From: Allosphingosinicella sp. | Lineage (GTDB): Bacteria > Pseudomonadota > Alphaproteobacteria > Sphingomonadales > Sphingomonadaceae | DNA length: 64,000 nt | Reading direction: 5' to 3' | Assembly: GCA_035994965.1 (NCBI GenBank) | Contig: DASYKV010000066.1 | Span: forward strand, 2,328-66,327 | In this document: one piece after another, positions 5,135-53,910 of the stretch | How positions within the stretch are numbered: position 1 is the first letter of the stretch | How the letters are laid out: every line of letters starts with the position of its first letter | Notes under the pieces: generated by a model | What the model was told of the DNA's origin: nothing | The model's database searches: none | The model's input: the letters and a program-made list of their open reading frames with translations, nothing else | Made by a program: the position numbers and the translations under genes

Positions 5135-7687
<2,553 letters not shown>

Positions 7688-7691
<4 letters not shown>

Positions 7692-9340
7692 GCCGCCTCC
7701 AGCAGCCGCACCGCCTGGGCGCGCGCCTCGTCGGTGACCTGCGCGCCCGAGAGCATGCGGGCGATCTCCTCGCGGCGGCGGCCTTCGTCGAGCAGATGGA
7801 CGCCGGTGCGGGTGACCACGCCGTCATGGCTCTTCTCGATCAGCAGATGCATGGCGCCGCGGGCGGCGACCTGGGGGCTGTGGGTGACGACGAGGACCTG
7901 GCCGGCCTCGGCCAGCCGGTGCAGCCGCTCGCCGACCGCGCTCGCCACCGCCCCGCCGACGCCGCGGTCGATCTCGTCGAAGATCATCGTCGTCGCCCCG
8001 CCCTGCTCGGCGAGCGCGACCTTGAGCGCAAGGATGAAGCGCGACAATTCGCCGCCCGACGCGATCCTGACCAGCGGCCCGAACGGCGCCCCTGAATTGG
8101 TCGAGACTTCGAATTCGACGCGGTCGCCGCCGCTCGGCCCCGGCTCGGCGGCGCCGATCACGGTGCGGAAGCGGGCCTGGTCGAGCTTAAGCGGCGCCAG
8201 CTCGCCCGCCACCGCCGAGTCGAGCCGCGCCGCCTCCGCCTGCCGTGCCGCGGTCAGGGCCGCCGCCTCGCGGTCGTAGATTGCGCGCGCGTCCGTAAGC
8301 CCGGCTTCGAGCGCCGCGATCTCCGCGCCGCCGGCCGCGATCGCGCCGAGCCGCCCGCGCAGATCCTCGGCCAGCGCCGGCAGCGCGTCCGCCTCGATGC
8401 GATGCTTGCGGGCGAGCGCCCGGATCTCGAACAGGCGCGCCTCGGCCTCCTCGAGGCGGGCCGGATCGAAGGCCAAGGCGCCCTGCGCCCGCTCCAGCGC
8501 ATCTTCCGCCTCGGCCGATTCGATCACGGCCCGGTCGAGCGCCGCAAGGCATTCGGTCAGCATCGCATGCTCGGCCGCGATCCGGTCGAGCCGCCGCGCC
8601 GCCTGGCGAAGCAGAGCGAGGCCGCCTTCGGACCCCTGGAGCAGGCCGGCGATGGTGGCGAGCTCGTCGCCGAGCCGGGCGCCCGCCTGCATGCCGGCGC
8701 GCAGCGAGGCCAGCGCCTCCTCCTCGCCCGGCGTCGGCACTAGAGCGTCCAGCTCCTCGACCGCGTGAGCGAGCCAATCGCGGTCGCGCATCGCCTCGTC
8801 ATGCGCCGCCCGGGCCGCGGCGAGCCCCGCCTCCGCCTGCTGGACTCGCGCCCAGGCGGCGGCCGCCGGAGCGCCGTCGATCCGCCCGAAGCTGTCGAGC
8901 AGGCCGCGATGGCCGCGCGGGTTGAGCAGGCCGCGATCGTCATGCTGGCCGTGAATCTCGACGAGGCTGGCGCCGAGCTCGCGAAGCAGCCCGGCCGAGA
9001 CCGGCTGGTCGTCAACGAAGGCGCGGCTGCCGCCGTCCGCCTTGACCGTGCGGCGGATGACCAGCGGCTCGCCCGGCGCGTGGGCCAGTCCGTTCGCCTC
9101 GAGCAGGGCAAGCGCCGCATGGTCGCGGCCGATCTCGAAGGACACGCTGACCGACGCCTGCGCCTGGCCGGCGCGCACCAGGCCGCTGTCCGCCCGCATG
9201 CCGAGCGCCAGCCCGAGCGCGTCGAGCAGGATCGACTTGCCCGCCCCGGTCTCGCCGGTGAGCACGCCCAGCCCCGCCCCGAAATCGAGCTCGAGCGTCT
9301 CGATCAGCACGACGTCGCGGATCGAAAGGGCGGTCAGCAT
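7688..9340 (-). CDS. recN: DNA repair protein RecN
   Basis: LTGETGAGKS Walker A, HGQHD, ASGGE, FDEID and VTHSPQVAA motifs. Confidence 0.97.
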
Positions 9341-47115: not shown

Positions 47116-47889
47116 GTGAAGATCGCCACGTTCAACGTCAACGGCATCAATGCGCGGATCGCCAACCTGCTCGACTGGCTGGCCGAGACGCGGCCCGAAA
47201 TCGCCTGCCTGCAGGAATTGAAGGCGCCCGACGAGCGCTTCCCGCAAGCGGCGATCGAGGCGGCCGGCTATGGCGCGATCTGGCACGGCCAGAAGAGCTG
47301 GAACGGAGTCGCCATCCTCGCCCGCGGCTGCCAGCCGGTCGAGACGCAGCGCGGCCTGCCGGGCGATCCGGACGACACGCACAGCCGCTACATCGAGGCG
47401 GCGGTGGACGGCGTCCTGATCGGCTGCCTCTACCTTCCAAACGGCAACCCCGTGGGCACGCCAAAATTCGCCTACAAGCTGACATGGATGGAGCGCTTCA
47501 TGGCGCGCGCCGCCGAGCTCGCCGGGCTCGATGGCCCGGTGGTGCTGGCCGGCGATTACAACATCATCCCGACGGACCGGGACGTCTACAAGCCCGAGCG
47601 CTGGCGCACCGACGCGCTCTTCCAGCCCGAGCCCCGCGCCCAATATGTCCGCCTCCTCAAGCAGGGCTGGACCGACGCGCTACGCCACCTCCACCCGGAT
47701 GAGACCATCTTCACCTTCTGGGATTATTGGCGCCACGCCTTCGCCCGCAACGCCGGCATCCGCATCGACCATCTGCTGCTCAACAAGGTAGCGGCGAAGC
47801 GGCTGGCCGCCGCCGGCGTCGACACCGCGACGCGAGCCAAGGAGAAAGCCAGCGACCACGCGCCGACCTGGGTGGAGCTTAGCGACTAA
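47116..47889 (+). CDS. xth: Exodeoxyribonuclease III
   Basis: ATFNVNG, LQELK, AGDYNI, GIRIDH and SDHAP motifs. Confidence 0.95.
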   Translation: MKIATFNVNGINARIANLLDWLAETRPEIACLQELKAPDERFPQAAIEAAGYGAIWHGQKSWNGVAILARGCQPVETQRGLPGDPDDTHSRYIEAAVDGVLIGCLYLPNGNPVGTPKFAYKLTWMERFMARAAELAGLDGPVVLAGDYNIIPTDRDVYKPERWRTDALFQPEPRAQYVRLLKQGWTDALRHLHPDETIFTFWDYWRHAFARNAGIRIDHLLLNKVAAKRLAAAGVDTATRAKEKASDHAPTWVELSD

Positions 47890-49060
47890 GAGCGGCGAAA
47901 CCACCGGAGTCATCCCGGCGAAGGCCGGGATGACTCAGCTTTTTTGAAACCCCGTCATAAATCGCCTCCAGCCGCGCCGTTAGGCCCGCCCGGTCGAAGC
48001 GCTCCTCCGCCAGACGCCGCGCCGCCGCGCCCATCTGCCGGTGCCAATCTTCGGAGCCGAGCAATTCGCCGAGCCGGTCCGCCAGCGCCGCCGCGTCGCC
48101 CTCCGGGACGAGGAAGCCCGTCTCGCCGTCCACGACCGCCTCGGGGATTCCTGAATGGTGGGTGGCGACGACCGGCAGGCCCGACGCCGCCGCCTCGACC
48201 ACCACGTTGGGCAGCCCCTCGGCGTCGCCGTCGCGGGCGGTGAGGCTCGGCGCGGCCAGCACCGCGGCGCGCCGCATCCATGAGGCGACCTCGTCCGGCG
48301 GCAGCGCGCCGAGGAAGCGCGCATGCGGGCCCGCCCGCCGTTCCAGCGCGCCCCTGAGCGGGCCGTCGCCGATCACGACCAGCCGCGCGCCCTCGATCCC
48401 CGCCATCGCCTCGATCAGCACCGCCGTCCCTTTCTTCTCGACCAGCCGGCCGACATGGAGGACCAGTCCCGGCTCGCGCGGGCCCTCGCCCGGGTGGAAG
48501 CGGTCGAGATCGACGCCGTTATAATGGGTTAGCGTGCGCTCCGCCGGATAACCGAGCGCAATCGCCTTCGCCCGCAGCGCGTCCGACACGGCGAGGAAGA
48601 GGTCGCCGCCGCGCATCAGCCGGCCCCGCCCGAGCGCATAGCGGATCCAGGTCGGCCGGCCCGAACGAAGCAGCGCCCCCCTGGAGAGCGTCACGTCATA
48701 GCCGCGCAAATGGGTGATCAGCGGAACGCCGAGCGCGCGCGCAAGCGGCAGGACCTTGAGCCCGTCCGTGCCGAAATGGGCGTGGATCAGCTTCGGCCCG
48801 GCCTCGCGCAGCCGCGCCTCGATGCCGCCGCCGCGCCCGCGCGCCGAGAAGAGCAGGCGCTCGGCCAGGCCCGTGGGCAGGATCATCCCTTCGCGCAATG
48901 CCGGCAGCACCTCCCCCTTGCGCTCAAGCCCGAAGACCAGAGGCCGCCAGCGCGTCAGCGCCGCCGCCTGGTCCTGGATGAAGCGTTCGGTCGGGTTGAA
49001 GACCGGGGTTCGGAAGAGAGCCGCGACCGGCCTCGGGTCGCGATCGGCGGGCGGGGACAT
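47879..49060 (-). CDS. GT4 family glycosyltransferase
   Basis: HAHFG, VGRLVEKKG and EGLPNVVVEAAASGLPVV motifs; the C-terminus runs through a REP. Confidence 0.92.
   Translation of the reverse strand: MSPPADRDPRPVAALFRTPVFNPTERFIQDQAAALTRWRPLVFGLERKGEVLPALREGMILPTGLAERLLFSARGRGGGIEARLREAGPKLIHAHFGTDGLKVLPLARALGVPLITHLRGYDVTLSRGALLRSGRPTWIRYALGRGRLMRGGDLFLAVSDALRAKAIALGYPAERTLTHYNGVDLDRFHPGEGPREPGLVLHVGRLVEKKGTAVLIEAMAGIEGARLVVIGDGPLRGALERRAGPHARFLGALPPDEVASWMRRAAVLAAPSLTARDGDAEGLPNVVVEAAASGLPVVATHHSGIPEAVVDGETGFLVPEGDAAALADRLGELLGSEDWHRQMGAAARRLAEERFDRAGLTARLEAIYDGVSKKLSHPGLRRDDSGGFAALSR
47907..47936. repeat. REP palindrome inside the 3' end of the GT4 gene
   Basis: gagtcatcccggcgaaggccgggatgactc. 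Confidence 0.9.
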
Positions 49061-49103
49061 AAGCCTCTTGGTCAACCGCCTCCGGCATGGATACAAGCAC
49101 AAA

Positions 49104-50600
49104 GTGACCGCCTCCCCCGCGCAACGACTGATCCTGAGAGGCGGCGGCTCGGCCGCTTTGGGCTTCGTCATCCGCTTCGGCGCGCGGCTCCTGTTCGTGA
49201 TCGTCGCCGGCCGCCTGTTCGGAGTCGCTTTGTTCGGCGCCTTCGCCATCGCAGTCGCCGTGGTCGAGCTCGCGGTGACGCTCGGCGGCGCCGGCATGAA
49301 GCGGCAATTGTTCAAATTGCTGGACGAGGAGAAAGAGGGCCGAAGCCCGCCGCACATCGTCCTCGACGGCGCCGTCCTCGTCACGATCGCCAGCCTCATC
49401 TGCGCGGCGCCGGTCATGATCGCGGTCGCCCTGCTGCCGCCCTCGCAGATCGCCGGCAACACCGCCATCGCCTTGCTGCTGCTGGCGCCGATGATCCTCG
49501 GCCAGTCGCTGCTCGATCTGCTGCTGGCCGCTACCCGCTGGACCCATAAGATGCGCCACCAGGTCTGGGCGCGCTCGATCATCGAGCCTTATGCCGGCGT
49601 CGCCGTCTCCGTGGCGGCGTGGCTCGCGGGCTATCAGGCGACCGGGCTGATCATCGGCTATTGGGCGGGGACGCTCGCCGCCTTGCTCTATGCGGCGGTC
49701 GGCGCCCGGCGCTGCCTTGGGCCGTTCCATCTGGGCGCCTACCGCCTCGCCCCCGCGCGCCTGCTCCATGTCGTGCGCGAGACCGCCTTGCCGACGCTCA
49801 GCGACTTCACCAACGCGCTCGCCGGCCGGCTCGATCTCTATCTGGTCGGGCTCCTGCTCGGCGAATCGCCGGCCGGCATTTACGGCATGGCGCGCCAGGT
49901 CCGAACCCCGATCCGCCAGGTCCGCCAGAGCTTCGATGGTCTGCTGACCCCGATCGTCTCGCGCACCTTGAGCATCGCCGGCCCGGTCGTCACCGGCCTC
50001 GCGACCGCCACGGCGAGCCGGCTGATCCTTGCGATCCAGCTCCCCATGCTGATCGGCCTGGTCGCGATCGGCGAGCCTTTGCTGCGCTGGATCGGCCCCG
50101 AATTCGTCGCCGGCTATTGGGCGTTGCTGCTGCTCGCCGCCGCCGAGGCCATCCAGGGCGCGTTCGGGGTCAGCGATCTCATCCTGCTCTACCGCCGGCC
50201 CGCCTTCATATTGTGGATCACGGCGATCGGCGCCGCGGTCAACGTCGCCGCCGGCTGGCCGCTCATCGCGCATTACGGCGTTACCGGCGCAGCTCTGGCC
50301 GCCTTGCTCGCTTATGCCGCGGCGGCCCTGGCCCGCCGAATGCTCCTGCGCTCGGGGTTCGGAATCAAGGTGCCGCTGCGCCACGCCGCAGCGCCGTTCG
50401 CCGCGGCCGCCGCCGGCCTCGCCGCCACGCTCGGGCTGCTCGCTCTGCCGCTCGCCGACGGCCCGCGCTTCGCGCTCGCCTTCGCCGGCGGCCTGCTCGC
50501 TTATTGGACCGCGCTCAGGCTCGCGCTCAGGCTGACGGACGCGAGCCTCAAGCTCGACCATTTCGTGCTCGAGCCCGGCGAGAACGGCGCGGGCGCGTAA
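49104..50600 (+). CDS. Wzx/MOP-type polysaccharide flippase
   Basis: About 14 TM helices, RLDLYLVG motif; divergent from a GT4; GTG start inferred. Confidence 0.82.
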   Translation: MTASPAQRLILRGGGSAALGFVIRFGARLLFVIVAGRLFGVALFGAFAIAVAVVELAVTLGGAGMKRQLFKLLDEEKEGRSPPHIVLDGAVLVTIASLICAAPVMIAVALLPPSQIAGNTAIALLLLAPMILGQSLLDLLLAATRWTHKMRHQVWARSIIEPYAGVAVSVAAWLAGYQATGLIIGYWAGTLAALLYAAVGARRCLGPFHLGAYRLAPARLLHVVRETALPTLSDFTNALAGRLDLYLVGLLLGESPAGIYGMARQVRTPIRQVRQSFDGLLTPIVSRTLSIAGPVVTGLATATASRLILAIQLPMLIGLVAIGEPLLRWIGPEFVAGYWALLLLAAAEAIQGAFGVSDLILLYRRPAFILWITAIGAAVNVAAGWPLIAHYGVTGAALAALLAYAAAALARRMLLRSGFGIKVPLRHAAAPFAAAAAGLAATLGLLALPLADGPRFALAFAGGLLAYWTALRLALRLTDASLKLDHFVLEPGENGAGA

Positions 50601-50614
50601 CACGGCCTCACACG

Positions 50615-50643
50615 GAGTCGTCCCGGCGAAGGCCGGGATGACT
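50615..50643. repeat. REP palindrome
   Basis: gagtcgtcccggcgaaggccgggatgact. Confidence 0.8.
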
Positions 50644-50658
50644 AGAAAATGGCGCCGG

Positions 50659-52686
50659 CTAGGCGAAGCGGATCTGGTCGAGCCCGAGGATCGGCGTGCG
50701 CGGCGCGGCGAGGCTCTCGATCCCCTCCTCGCCGATGGCGAGCGGATCGGCCTCGGCGAGGTTGCCGAAGGAGATTCCGCTCTTCGCCTCGATCGAGCGG
50801 ATCGAGACCTGGGTGGCGAGGCCGAGCTGCGGCGAGGTGAAGGCGCCGAACACGAACTCCTCTTCCGGCACCAGCGACTGCTCCTGGTTCATCTCATAGC
50901 CGGTCGCGGTGAGCTGCCCGGTCTCGTCATGGATGAAGGCGATGATCTTCCAGAAGGAGAGCGGGATCCTGACCCCGTACATGGTCGGATCGGCGTCGGT
51001 GAAATAGGGGCCGGTGAACACCGAGATGTTCATCTTGTCCTCGCGGGCATGCTCCAGCGCATAATCTTCGAGCGCCAGCCAGATCGGCGAGTTGAACGCC
51101 TGCATCTGCGGCGTGGTGTTGGTGACGTGCATCGAATCCTGGTTGCCGCGCATCGCGGCCGCGTCGTCGTCGCCCCAGGCCGGATCCTCGCGCCTCGTCA
51201 TATGGCCGCGGCTGAAGCGCGGCGGGCCGCCATAGCATTCGTTCATTATCTGCTGCGATTTCGGGATTCGCGGATCCCATTTCCAGCCGACCCGCTTGCT
51301 CTTCTTGGAGAGATTGCCGTTGATGTTGACCGCGCTGAAGAAGCACATCCGCCGCGGCTCGTTCATCACCACCGAATAATGCTGGTAGCGAAGCTCGGTC
51401 TCGGTCTTGCCATCGACCTCGAATTCGAGGATCTCGCCGGCGGCGCCCTCGACCTTCGGCAAGGGCACGTCGACCCCGAGAAAGTCCGGCCGGTAGCCGG
51501 TCCGGTCGCGATAATCCTCGACCCGCCCCTCCTCGCCCTCGATCTCGTCGACAAGGCCGTCGGCGGGCAGAAGCTGGGCCGGAGCTGGCGGCCGCACCGT
51601 CAGATCCACCGTTCCGGTCGCACCGGCGGTGGTGACGGTGATGGTCAGCGGGATGGTCAGGCTGCCAAGGACGTTGCCGCCCGCCTGCGCCTGCGCCGCG
51701 GCCGCCGGGCCGGCCGGGTCCGGGCGCGGGCTGGTTTCCGGGCGGACCCGGCCGGCGCGCACCATTGCGAGCCGGTTCGCGACCACGTCCGAGCGGACCG
51801 CATAATTGGTGGTCAGGAAGCTGCCGCTATTGTGCAGGCCGACCGCCTCGCCGCTGTCGAGATCGATTACCACCGATCCCGAATTGCCCCCGAGCGTCGT
51901 GCAATTGTGCAGGAGTCGCTCCGCCTCGACCTTGGTCACGCCGCCAGGCGCCAGCCGCTTCTTGTTGTAGACCTTGCCGTAGATCCGCTCCATCAAATCG
52001 GTTTCGGGGATCCGGCTGTCATAGGCCGGATAGCCGATTGCGGCGACGTTCTGGGTCACCGCCGGCCGCTTCGCCAGCTTGATCGGCTTGGCCAGCTTCT
52101 TGTCGCCCGCCGTCATTTCGATCTGGAAGAAAGCCAGATCGGGGCCCGGCGACGGCTCGATGTAGAGCGGCCGGACGAGCTTGAAGACGAGGGTGTTGGG
52201 ATTGTCGATCTCCTGGAGGAAATCGACGCCGGCGCCGATCGGGCCGTCATTGCCCATCTTGAAGGTGAAGCCGCCGCCGCCTTGGGCTGCGAATTCGTTG
52301 GCGACGTGGCGGTTGGTGACCAGGATCGACTCGTGGACCAGCCAGCCGGTGCCGACCCAGTCGATCCAGCTGCCCTTGAGCTCGATCCGCCCGACCGCCT
52401 TGATCGCCCGCTCGAGCTTGGGCTTGGCGCGCTCCAGCCGCTCGCGCCAGATCTGGCTGTCGACCGGATCGGCGAAGACGAGGCTCGCCACGTTTTCCTT
52501 GATCGCCAGCACCGGCCGCTCGCGGCGCATGACGATGCTCTCCATCGCCAGCGCCTCTTCGTCGCTGACCGCCGGCGCCAGGCTCTCCAGCACGTCGAGG
52601 CCTTCCTCGGCGAGCGCCGGATCGGCGCTCCGAATCTCGGCGTTGTGGCGCCGCAGGCGTTCGAGCTTGTCCTGAAGCGTACCCAT
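50659..52686 (-). CDS. Trypsin-like serine protease fused to a DNA/RNA non-specific endonuclease (NucA/EndoG family)
   Basis: Protease triad VTNRHV / PDLA / GGNSGS; nuclease SRGHMTRREDP, TNTTPQ...FN...W..LE; no signal peptide. Confidence 0.9.
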   Translation of the reverse strand: MGTLQDKLERLRRHNAEIRSADPALAEEGLDVLESLAPAVSDEEALAMESIVMRRERPVLAIKENVASLVFADPVDSQIWRERLERAKPKLERAIKAVGRIELKGSWIDWVGTGWLVHESILVTNRHVANEFAAQGGGGFTFKMGNDGPIGAGVDFLQEIDNPNTLVFKLVRPLYIEPSPGPDLAFFQIEMTAGDKKLAKPIKLAKRPAVTQNVAAIGYPAYDSRIPETDLMERIYGKVYNKKRLAPGGVTKVEAERLLHNCTTLGGNSGSVVIDLDSGEAVGLHNSGSFLTTNYAVRSDVVANRLAMVRAGRVRPETSPRPDPAGPAAAAQAQAGGNVLGSLTIPLTITVTTAGATGTVDLTVRPPAPAQLLPADGLVDEIEGEEGRVEDYRDRTGYRPDFLGVDVPLPKVEGAAGEILEFEVDGKTETELRYQHYSVVMNEPRRMCFFSAVNINGNLSKKSKRVGWKWDPRIPKSQQIMNECYGGPPRFSRGHMTRREDPAWGDDDAAAMRGNQDSMHVTNTTPQMQAFNSPIWLALEDYALEHAREDKMNISVFTGPYFTDADPTMYGVRIPLSFWKIIAFIHDETGQLTATGYEMNQEQSLVPEEEFVFGAFTSPQLGLATQVSIRSIEAKSGISFGNLAEADPLAIGEEGIESLAAPRTPILGLDQIRFA

Positions 52687-52781
52687 CGGCTTCCCCCGGT
52701 TCGAGTAACCTTCAAATAATCGGCTAGTCCGTCGCCTGCTTATGAGCGCTTTTTTCTTCCCCCGCCACGCGATTCTCCGGC

Positions 52782-53090
52782 CTATTCCGTGCCGACGGCG
52801 AACAAAGCGGCCTTTGCATATCTGGGATGGCCGGGATCGAAGCTTCGCTCGGGCTCGAACGGGCCGCCGGCCAGCTCCAGATCGTGCAGCCCGGCCAGCT
52901 TGAAGGTGCCGAGCTTCACCTCGCGGGGCGGCCGATTGTCCCGCTCGACGGTGATCGCGTCTATGAACAGCTCGTCGTGCCGCTGATAGAGAATATGCGG
53001 CGCAAGCGTCACCGCGGCTTTATTGTAAACGGCGCGGATGCACGTCTTGAGCGCGATCGCCTCGAGCAGAAGGGGAGTGCTTTGCTGCAT
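52782..53090 (-). CDS. Standalone WYL-like domain protein
   Basis: Y......LAPHILY....LFIDA ... GTFKLAGL pattern parallels WYL (P..L, RTFRLDRI). Confidence 0.65.
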   Translation of the reverse strand: MQQSTPLLLEAIALKTCIRAVYNKAAVTLAPHILYQRHDELFIDAITVERDNRPPREVKLGTFKLAGLHDLELAGGPFEPERSFDPGHPRYAKAALFAVGTE

Positions 53091-53154: not shown

Positions 53155-53910
53155 ATGTCCAAGGGCCGCGCCAAGCTGGAGATGTCGCAGGGGGTGAGCG
53201 TCTGGGTGCTCGATGCCCCGGACGGTTTCGGCGACGCCGATTTCCACGCCCATCACGCCATCCAGATCACCGCGAGCCTGACCGGCGCGCTCACCCTGAC
53301 GAGCGCGGACGAGACGCTGACCGCGCCGATCCTGGCCGTCGCCGCCGACGCGCGGCACAGGTTCGAAGCGCATGGCCTGCTCGCCTTCGTCTTCGTCGAG
53401 CCCGAGAGCCGCCTCGGCCGCGCGCTGACCGGGAGCCTGTTCCGCGGCCGCTCGCTGGTCGCAATCGACAGGCCGGACGTCGCCCGCCATCTGGAGCCGC
53501 TTCGCGCCACCTTCGATGCGCCGCCCGGCAAGGGCGCGCTGCTCGACGCCGGCCGGGCGGCGGCCGAGGCGCTGGCGCCGGGCCTGCAAGCCCCGCTGCC
53601 GGACCCGCGCATCCAGCGCATCATCGAGCATGCCGCTTCCCACCTCGAAGAACCGCTCAGCCTCGCCAGCGCGTCGGCCGGAGTCCATCTCTCGCCGAGC
53701 CGCCTCAGGCATTTGTTCGTCGAGCAGACCGGCCTGGCCTTCAAAACCTATCTGCTCTGGCTTCGGCTGGTCAGCGCGGTGACGGTCTATTCGGAAGGCA
53801 AGTCGCTCACCGAGGCGGCGCATGCGGCTGGCTTTTCCGATTCGGCGCATTTCAGCAGGATCTTCAAGCGCACCTTCGGATTGCCGGCGACGACGCTGAC
53901 GCGATTATAG
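53155..53910 (+). CDS. AraC family transcriptional regulator
   Basis: Cupin-like HAHHA N-terminus; LSPSRLRHLF and AGFSDSAHFSRIFKRTFG HTH. Confidence 0.93.
   Translation: MSKGRAKLEMSQGVSVWVLDAPDGFGDADFHAHHAIQITASLTGALTLTSADETLTAPILAVAADARHRFEAHGLLAFVFVEPESRLGRALTGSLFRGRSLVAIDRPDVARHLEPLRATFDAPPGKGALLDAGRAAAEALAPGLQAPLPDPRIQRIIEHAASHLEEPLSLASASAGVHLSPSRLRHLFVEQTGLAFKTYLLWLRLVSAVTVYSEGKSLTEAAHAAGFSDSAHFSRIFKRTFGLPATTLTRL

Follow-up and report, generated by a model that had tools for sequence, protein, structure and literature searches.

The DNA examined in this study is a stretch of 64,000 nt from Allosphingosinicella sp. (assembly GCA_035994965.1, contig DASYKV010000066.1, positions 2,328 to 66,327 of the forward strand), and this whole stretch is referred to as the window. 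The reverse strand of the window carries a gene for a 675-aa protein in which a trypsin-like serine protease is joined to a NucA/EndoG-type nuclease (hereafter, the fusion), and a second gene, for a protein of 102 aa (p102), lies on the same strand at a distance of 95 nt. Both open reading frames (ORFs) were found exactly as they had been claimed in a preliminary description of this DNA. The positions of these genes and of the related features are shown in Table 1. As judged from its sequence, the fusion appears to be an intact member of the published class of proteins called LypC or 'NucA-trypsin'; that is, it seems to be a new and solo member of an architecture that has already been named three times.

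Table 1. Features of the fusion locus (window coordinates; AF2, AlphaFold2; pLDDT, predicted local distance difference test score)
Feature	Coordinates	Strand	Basis or remark
Putative LypC-class protease-nuclease fusion gene, 675 aa	50659..52686 (stop codon included)	-	ORF list, Pfam, homologues
N-terminal helical hairpin (aa 4-33, 42-56) and conserved pro-region (ESIVxRRxRPVLAI...DSxIW), aa 1-100	52387..52686	-	AF2 secondary structure, conservation
S1B (V8/Spl-like) serine protease domain, aa 101-312; triad H127, D183, S269; H260 and H285 also conserved	51751..52386	-	Pfam, Foldseek, profile
Variable Pro/Ala-rich linker, aa 313-394	51505..51750	-	pLDDT <50 at aa 317-383; poor conservation outside the tag
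Beta-strand tag S-L-T-I-P-L-T-I-T-V-T-T-A-G, aa 342-355 (family consensus xTIPLTVTVSLG)	51622..51663	-	Conservation in 57 sequences
NucA/EndoG-type (Endonuclease_NS) nuclease, aa 395-675; R493-G-H495, N523, N532, E540; conserved C-terminal LxQIRF tail	50662..51504	-	Pfam 4e-37, conservation, Foldseek
p102, stand-alone small protein of predicted WYL fold (Sm-like), 102 aa	52782..53090	-	AF2, Foldseek; resident gene
Presence/absence segment, 2189 nt, with the fusion gene alone inside	50592..52780	.	blastn break points, junction alignment, synteny
Polysaccharide flippase (Polysacc_synt), convergent with the fusion	48714..50600	+	Pfam; the one neighbour retained next to the fusion in this lineage
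AraC-family regulator, divergent from p102	53155..53910	+	Pfam HTH_18/HTH_AraC; syntenic in L001 and L062, absent in L071-L073

The Pfam search assigned aa 112-284 of the fusion to Trypsin_2 (1e-12) and aa 420-643 to Endonuclease_NS (4e-37). That is, the protease is located on the N-terminal side and the nuclease follows it within one polypeptide, which is the arrangement that characterizes the LypC / NucA-trypsin class. The class is further characterized by intact catalytic residues in both domains, and these residues were present in the fusion (H127/D183/S269 for the protease; R493-G-H495 and N523/N532 for the nuclease). All of the motifs quoted in the preliminary description could be located, namely TNRH127V, PD183LA and GNS269GS, the linker strand LTIPLTITVT (aa 343-352), and RGH495, N523, N532 and LE540. 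In alignments of 20 and 57 family sequences, the catalytic residues were invariant or nearly so. No EAD domain was detected on the fusion by Pfam. As had also been claimed before, a signal peptide is not indicated, and neither is a transmembrane segment, because the N-terminus is hydrophilic and no 19-residue window has a Kyte-Doolittle mean above 1.32. The fusion is thus predicted to be a cytoplasmic protein.

The AF2 model of the fusion, made from the 57-sequence alignment, had a mean pLDDT of 76; it showed three helices at the N-terminus, followed by a protease of two barrels, a disordered linker (aa 317-383), and an alpha/beta nuclease domain. When this model was compared with the PDB by Foldseek, the SplB/SplE, Esp and V8 proteases were the top matches, and EndoG (6nju) and the Serratia nuclease (1qae) were also matched. 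A phmmer search of the PDB sequences with the single fusion protein gave no match at 1e-5, and a family profile was required; with this profile, glutamyl endopeptidases ranked first. That is, the V8/Esp glutamyl endopeptidases and the Spl proteases (S1B) are the nearest solved folds and profile matches to the fusion protease. Proteases of this type possess an N-terminal propeptide that needs precise removal; the exact mature N-terminus is required for their activity. The fusion has a conserved extension of about 100 aa at the place where the V8/Spl enzymes carry the propeptide. Those enzymes are secreted and their propeptides are short, whereas the fusion is predicted to be cytoplasmic and its extension includes a helical hairpin; behaviour as a zymogen is what the position of the extension suggests. 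From the V8-like pocket, a preference for Glu at P1 might tentatively be expected. As for the nuclease domain, it has the same Endonuclease_NS catalytic core (RGH...N...N/E) as Anabaena NucA, the partner of NuiA, and the Serratia nuclease. These two nucleases are secreted and/or accompanied by a dedicated inhibitor, whereas no signal peptide is indicated for the fusion. A search for NuiA gave no match, but the control was silent as well, so that this result carries no information.

The preliminary description had not recognized the pair of genes as a named system. However, the architecture of the fusion already appears in the literature as the NucA-trypsin system, as a CARD-NLR effector, and as LypC. 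Kaur, Burroughs, Iyer & Aravind (eLife 2020, PMC7159879) described the same fusion as 'System 3: NucA-trypsin / NucA-peptidase' and proposed a proteolytic cascade that deploys NucA. As in the fusion examined here, the NucA (Endonuclease_NS) domain of System 3 is fused to, or encoded next to, trypsin-like peptidases, mostly in Alphaproteobacteria. Some of the trypsin paralogues carry EAD1, some of the operons include a STAND NTPase, and the trypsin and NucA components form the essential core, which occurs also independently of EAD1 (PMC7159879). The description of System 3 is purely computational and concerns operons or fusions in general, whereas the copy in the window lacks both a peptidase paralogue and an EAD protein in cis, and its candidates for these components are on another contig.

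The second description is that of the CARD-NLR anti-phage systems (Wein et al. 2023, PMC10312443). Their operons consist of three genes, for a CARD-protease, an ATPase, and an effector to which a trypsin-like protease is fused. The fusion resembles this trypsin-fused effector class. The partners in the CARD-NLR systems are a CARD/Death-like protease and an NLR-like ATPase, and the effectors are swapped among nuclease, phospholipase and gasdermin. Defence was demonstrated for the Lysobacter gasdermin and the Pedobacter PLD-endonuclease systems, not for a trypsin-NucA effector (PMC10312443), and the gene in the window is outside such an operon.

The third is LypC of the LypABC system of Caulobacter crescentus (Nat Microbiol 2026, PMC13236601), in which a trypsin-like peptidase (aa 1-335, S296) is followed by an endonuclease (aa 354-662, H471 and N505). 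LypC and the fusion are alike in size (about 660-675 aa), in their cytoplasmic nature, which is a prediction for the fusion, and in their location outside a defence island. They differ in that LypC is encoded in an operon with LypA (a CARD-protease-pseudoATPase) and LypB (NLR-like), whereas the gene in the window is solo; the spacing from the catalytic His to Asn is 34 residues in LypC (H471/N505) and 28 or 37 in the fusion. In our control set, the PF01223 profile matched Caulobacter vibrioides.

Homologues of the fusion were abundant (more than 1800), and the best 120 of them were all full-length proteins with both domains, showing 62-96% identity. The family extends over the Alpha- and Betaproteobacteria, Acidobacteriota, Gemmatimonadota, Bacteroidota, Chloroflexota, Myxococcota and Planctomycetota, and an identity of 62-67% was found across the Alpha- and Betaproteobacteria, Acidobacteriota and others. 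Members are also found on conjugative rhizobial and Agrobacterium plasmids, where they are annotated merely as 'DNA/RNA non-specific endonuclease'.

A scan of one genome per species gave 56 species-level fusion loci, and the genes of these loci were called and then classified with profiles built from the identified neighbours. An extra trypsin protease and/or an AAA/STAND NTPase was located within 6 kb of the fusion in about 36 of the 56 loci, and the fusion was solo in about 15. Effector-associated domains (EADs) are Death-like adaptor domains. Pfam found EAD1 or EAD5 at the N-termini of several neighbouring proteases of about 350 aa, and AAA_16, nSTAND1 and NPHP3_N in the large NTPases. Two layouts recurred. 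In type A, the fusion is accompanied by an EAD-trypsin, an AAA protein of about 360 aa, and a STAND NTPase of 950-1340 aa; in type B, its companions are an approximately 365-aa trypsin, an approximately 448-aa protein, and an nSTAND1-related protein. These are exactly the components of System 3. Most genomes with a member of the class encode it as the third component of a CARD-NLR-like (EAD-STAND) conflict system.

The situation in the window is different from these layouts. Neither a protease paralogue nor an EAD protein nor a STAND NTPase lies beside the fusion in the window; that is, both the adjoining CARD/EAD-trypsin protease and the adjoining STAND NTPase of a complete CARD-NLR / EAD-STAND system are absent in cis. 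Within this genome, such a protease is encoded solely on contig C44. The neighbours are the flippase, a GT4 glycosyltransferase, ExoIII, a DyP peroxidase, AraC and p102, and they do not constitute a defence island.

In order to describe the history of this site, we use the gene orders of related loci. The order AraC - p102 - fusion - flippase - GT4 is common to the window and L001, a locus of genome G186 (also handled as G151). In L062, which is from the Allosphingosinicella genome G152, the order is AraC - p102 - flippase - GT4, and 29 nt stand in place of the 2189-nt segment; the blastn break points join L062 5310 to window position 52781 and L062 5340 to window position 50591. The order in L072 is p102 - flippase - GT4, again without the fusion. 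In contrast, L071 and L073, of which the fusions are 76% and 74% identical to that of the window, have the order fusion - flippase - GT4 without p102 or AraC. In other words, p102 and the flippase are directly convergent at the fusion site in L062 and L072, whereas the fusion - flippase - GT4 order is retained in the window, L001, L071 and L073. The fusions of L001, L071 and L073 are 90, 76 and 74% identical to the window copy, in parallel with the identity of the flanking genes.

No terminal direct or inverted repeats and no target duplications were found at 50592/52780, and the same flippase-proximal site is occupied in the relatives at 74-76%; a recent insertion of a mobile element is not supported. 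Since these relatives carry the fusion at the same site, it is more parsimonious to assume that the fusion was present ancestrally and was lost in L062 and L072. The simplest reading of these comparisons is that the fusion would have been resident for a long time at the 3' end of the flippase gene, a site whose occupancy varies. The dN/dS value of the fusion against its 90% orthologue in L001 was 0.38, and those of p102 and AraC were 0.17-0.24. Because the frame and all catalytic residues are intact, the dN/dS value is 0.38, and one site has been kept over 74-90% divergence, the solo fusion appears to be maintained under purifying selection and not to be decaying. It is to be noted that solo copies of an executioner class can be inherited stably for long periods, and it may be asked what keeps a cytoplasmic non-specific nuclease silent when no partner is encoded in cis. 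No inhibitor gene accompanies the fusion, since the presence/absence segment contains no second gene, and any restraint on the nuclease would have to act within the molecule or originate outside this segment.

The genome possesses one type-B system, which is located on contig C44 (C44:24777-31293, corresponding to L057 6778-13294). It consists of a Trypsin_2 protease of 360 aa, an approximately 448-aa protein that matches EAD1 weakly, an nSTAND1 NTPase for which the public gene call gives 888 aa, and a divergently transcribed 502-aa protease that possesses the pro-region, the protease and the tag of the fusion and no nuclease. The 502-aa protein showed 34% identity to the fusion over fusion aa 34-312. 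When the own genome was searched with a profile of fusion aa 46-100, this protein was the sole match, and the matched part is the pro-region, not an EAD. Fusion aa 1-45 had no homologue in the own genome, so an EAD- or CARD-like homotypic partner was not found there; that is, no homotypic CARD/EAD adaptor common to the fusion and the C44 system was detected.

The C-terminal part of the C44 NTPase (about 260 aa, L057 6778-7560) is Endonuclease_NS-like, but its catalytic residues have been lost (RGH is replaced by KGL, and the residue corresponding to N523 by Pro). This dead NucA-like domain was common to only 8 proteins in a collection of 5.8 billion clusters. It could serve as a sensor or as a docking domain for the live nuclease. 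The label 'NUC' given to the NTPases of L022 and L025 failed in alignment; a convincing dead NucA-like domain was found solely in the C44 and G186 NTPases. Apart from C44, nSTAND1 NTPases are encoded at C60:9121-10374 and C40:32399-33727 (open frames of 981 and 1365 aa), and no partner trypsin protease was detected for them.

The fusion was found in exactly two of 25 genomes of the genus, and so was the C44-type protease. The two genomes were the same pair (the genome of the window, G000, and G186), and neither gene was found in the other 23. Genome G152, a close relative without the fusion, lacks the C44-type protease too. In 150 other sampled genomes of the family, neither a close full-length fusion nor the C44-type protease was found. 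By our own simple combinatorics, uncorrected for phylogeny, the chance of hitting the same two of 25 genomes is 1/300. The CARD-type proteases of the two genomes (G000 C44:28773-29852 and G186 C79:7998-9056) were 59% identical, in contrast to about 90% for the fusion and the flanking core genes. This contrast can mean either fast diversification of the sensor operon or its independent acquisition. The co-occurrence of the fusion and the C44 operon is suggestive of functional coupling across two loci. A solo fusion and an unlinked STAND/protease operon that appear and vanish together within a genus lend themselves to testing whether effectors of bacterial NLR-like immunity act in trans. Of the further genomes in which the fusion is solo, about half encode a full-length partner protease at another place.

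From these findings, we lean towards the view that the fusion is a cytoplasmic, solo LypC / NucA-trypsin member, to which p102 is unrelated, and that it is a latent nuclease effector activated by proteolysis, possibly in trans; we consider this view to be somewhat favoured, not established. In the CARD-NLR-like systems, the STAND NTPase sensor activates the CARD/EAD-bearing trypsin protease, and a proteolytic cascade would then switch on the effector. The steps that we infer for the fusion are as follows. The fusion would be made as a latent zymogen, of which the protease and the nuclease may be held inactive by the N-terminal extension of about 100 aa and/or by the tag. An upstream protease, preferably the C44 360-aa enzyme acting in trans, would cleave the fusion once the STAND sensor is triggered by an invader, possibly a phage; self-cleavage of the fusion may be the alternative source of the cut. 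The activated fusion would degrade nucleic acids and/or cut further targets, and this may lead to cell death of the abortive-infection type. The preliminary description had put forward a latent nuclease that proteolysis would release in the context of defence or cell death. This idea is supported in kind by the proposal of Kaur et al. (PMC7159879) and by the EAD/CARD-trypsin and STAND neighbours of the family, but the relay through a WYL protein that it had added is not.

Several points weigh against this view. The assignment to LypC rests on architecture and operon type, not on an alignment with LypC itself (ACL94044.1). The AF2 model has low confidence at the active-site loops of the nuclease and leaves the tag undocked. 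The co-occurrence with the C44 operon comes from two related genomes, which are not phylogenetically independent. PADLOC 2.0.0 has no model for systems of the LypC / CARD-NLR type. Furthermore, in LypC, the sole homologue class that has been tested, the protease serine is essential for lysis and the nuclease catalytic residues are dispensable (PMC13236601), meaning that the nuclease of the fusion may not be the killing activity and that the protease may be the critical part. Finally, genomes G153 and G156 carry solo fusions and have no partner protease at E<=1e-8. The class can therefore persist alone, and the autonomy of the enzyme stays a live rival.

According to this rival, the fusion would be an autonomous single-gene suicide or defence enzyme that senses and activates itself by autoproteolysis of the pro-region or the linker, with no STAND or CARD-protease partner. 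In our judgement it is possible and rather unlikely. It agrees with the approximately 15 solo loci among the 56, with G153 and G156, in which the partner protease is nowhere in the genome at the threshold given above, with the solo persistence of this lineage at one site across 74-90% divergence under purifying selection, and with the occurrence of the trypsin-NucA core independently of EAD1 (PMC7159879). However, the fusion is without a recognizable sensor domain, and the helical hairpin at aa 1-45 is without a homologue in the genome. In addition, most relatives are encoded in multi-gene STAND operons, and the co-occurrence with the C44 operon is perfect within the genus.

A more specific proposal takes the latter observation further. 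That is, the fusion may be an effector that has become detached in a CARD-NLR-like system split over two loci, and the STAND/protease operon on C44 would activate it in trans. Docking might be achieved by pseudo-homodimerization of the dead and the live nuclease domains, and the tag might be a recognition or cleavage element. We put this proposal forward tentatively and would sooner doubt it than adopt it.

A role outside defence seems improbable to us. In this case, the fusion would be a LypABC-like lysis factor for the release of gene-transfer agents (GTAs) or a silent remnant of a lost operon. LypABC of Caulobacter controls GTA-linked lysis and is not in a defence island (PMC13236601); the fusion locus in the window is likewise outside a defence island, and the dN/dS value of the fusion exceeds those of its neighbours. 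On the other hand, the GTA_TIM marker (PF13547) is absent from this 99%-complete genome, with a positive result for the Caulobacter control, and LypABC, in contrast, is tied to GTA release; a GTA-release role of the fusion is unlikely. A relic is at variance with the intact frame, with the retention of all the catalytic residues, and with the one site kept over 74-90% divergence.

There is next to no likelihood that p102 and the fusion form a two-gene module in which a WYL protein relays a nucleic-acid or stress cue to the protease-nuclease, as the preliminary description had proposed. WYL regulators control some defence systems (CapW, BrxR). The proposal is in keeping with the same-strand arrangement at a distance of 95 nt, with the absence of a predicted terminator between the two genes, and with the fold of p102. 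Concerning this fold, the AF2 model of p102 had a pLDDT of 88, and the PDB matches at ranks 1-12 in Foldseek were all WYL proteins, including PafBC (6sj9), DriD (7tzv/8tp8/9cu3) and CapW (7tb5), with TMq values of 0.51-0.69 and E values of 6e-3 to 0.14. Two public records label p102 homologues as 'WYL domain-containing protein'. In contrast, p102 had no match in Pfam (none even at E=10), NCBIfam or PADLOC, and its family profile had no match in the PDB sequences. The term 'WYL-like' used for this gene is thus correct at the level of the predicted fold, and no support came from sequence profiles. In our reading, the pattern Y-N..V.LAPH.LY...ELF.DA......FKL.GL resembles the WYL core. The predicted Sm-like fold of p102 is that of the WYL-domain proteins, a class to which PafBC, DriD, CapW and BrxR belong. 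p102 differs from these proteins in that it is a bare 102-aa domain without a helix-turn-helix (HTH) or WCX domain, without a Pfam WYL match, and without a conserved defence context.

The comparison across genomes speaks clearly against the pair. A p102 homologue adjoins the fusion in only one of the 56 species-level loci, namely L001, the 90%-identical orthologue. Relatives of p102 were found in 51 of 151 sampled family genomes, which represent 43 of 112 genera, and most of these genomes had one copy, whereas a close full-length fusion was found in one of the 151, which is the genome of the window itself. One distant full-length relative of the fusion occurs among these genomes, and its genome is without p102. 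As described above, L062 and L072 keep p102 and the flippase without the fusion, and L071 and L073 keep the fusion and the flippase without p102. The other contexts in which p102 was found contain no fusion; in Sphingomonas species, for example, its gene is flanked by genes for a peptidase M1 and a GGDEF protein. Moreover, p102 has neither an HTH nor an effector domain. We rejected the two-gene module from the adjacency in one of 56 loci, the co-occurrence counts, and the empty and alternative sites in the relatives; p102 is an unrelated resident neighbour and is not part of the system of the fusion. Co-occurrence across genomes had been proposed as a check in the preliminary description itself, which regarded its model as refuted if the WYL gene proved to be a genus-core neighbour rarely beside the fusion. 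This is the outcome obtained, as p102 is a resident gene throughout the family and rarely adjoins the fusion. PADLOC, which had been proposed as another check, gave no full-length system match for the fusion and none for p102. The matches of the fusion in PADLOC 2.0.0 (2023) were partial ones to the protease domain alone ('nacht' PDLC03010 at 1e-11, RT-Protease_XI and PDC-M35A), and among the C44 proteins none matched except the 502-aa protease.

Thus a new WYL-controlled protease-nuclease pair does not exist, and the main value of this analysis is that a false lead is stopped and the gene is filed in the LypC / NucA-trypsin class. The residual value is in the possible two-locus system, the STAND sensor with a dead nuclease, and the conserved tag. 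As a separate observation, p102 defines a family of stand-alone WYL-fold proteins of about 100 aa, which has no Pfam model and is found in varied contexts unrelated to defence.

A secreted nuclease or polymorphic toxin was rejected, as no signal peptide or transmembrane segment is indicated and the context of the family is that of STAND/protease operons.

The tag deserves separate description. The linker is variable except for one strictly conserved motif, S/T-x-T-I-P-L-T-V/I-T-V-S-L-G; here, P346 was invariant and T344 was conserved in at least 90% of the 57 sequences, and the strict motif was found in 29 fusion genes of the loci scanned. AF2 predicted strands at the tag with a pLDDT below 40. 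A looser form, WTIPIEISINVG, follows the trypsin domain of the C44 502-aa protease and lies 10 residues from its C-terminus (L057 13226-13264), and another looser form, VVPLEISVRLG, comes after the protease of a plasmid-borne trypsin-PLD fusion of Mesorhizobium (L070 ~8135-8170). Since the tag is retained even where nothing lies downstream of it, it is part of the protease module and not solely a site for the release of the effector. We regard it as a candidate recognition, pseudo-substrate or assembly strand. The tag is found after the protease whether a nuclease, a PLD domain or no effector is present, and it is a concrete candidate for the element by which these systems are activated or cleaved.

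The trypsin-PLD protein mentioned above (L070 5549-9898, on plasmid pOM4 of Mesorhizobium onobrychidis) has 1449 aa, and the same pro-region, trypsin domain and tag are fused in it to a PLD-like domain. Its gene adjoins genes for a caspase-family protein and another trypsin-like peptidase. This protein seems to be a case of effector swapping within the class. In two other loci, two full-length fusions stand side by side in divergent or tandem orientation (L003 3621-5702 on the - strand with 6001-8055 on the + strand; L043 2510-4735 with 5971-8058). These pairs suggest paralogue expansion of the effector.

Finally, the GT4 glycosyltransferase gene beside the flippase in the window (47879-49582, - strand) gave a sub-threshold match to the Pfam family GT4-conflict (19.5 bits against a cut-off of 26). 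This match was far weaker than the ordinary GT4 matches of the same gene, which is probably an ordinary polysaccharide gene.

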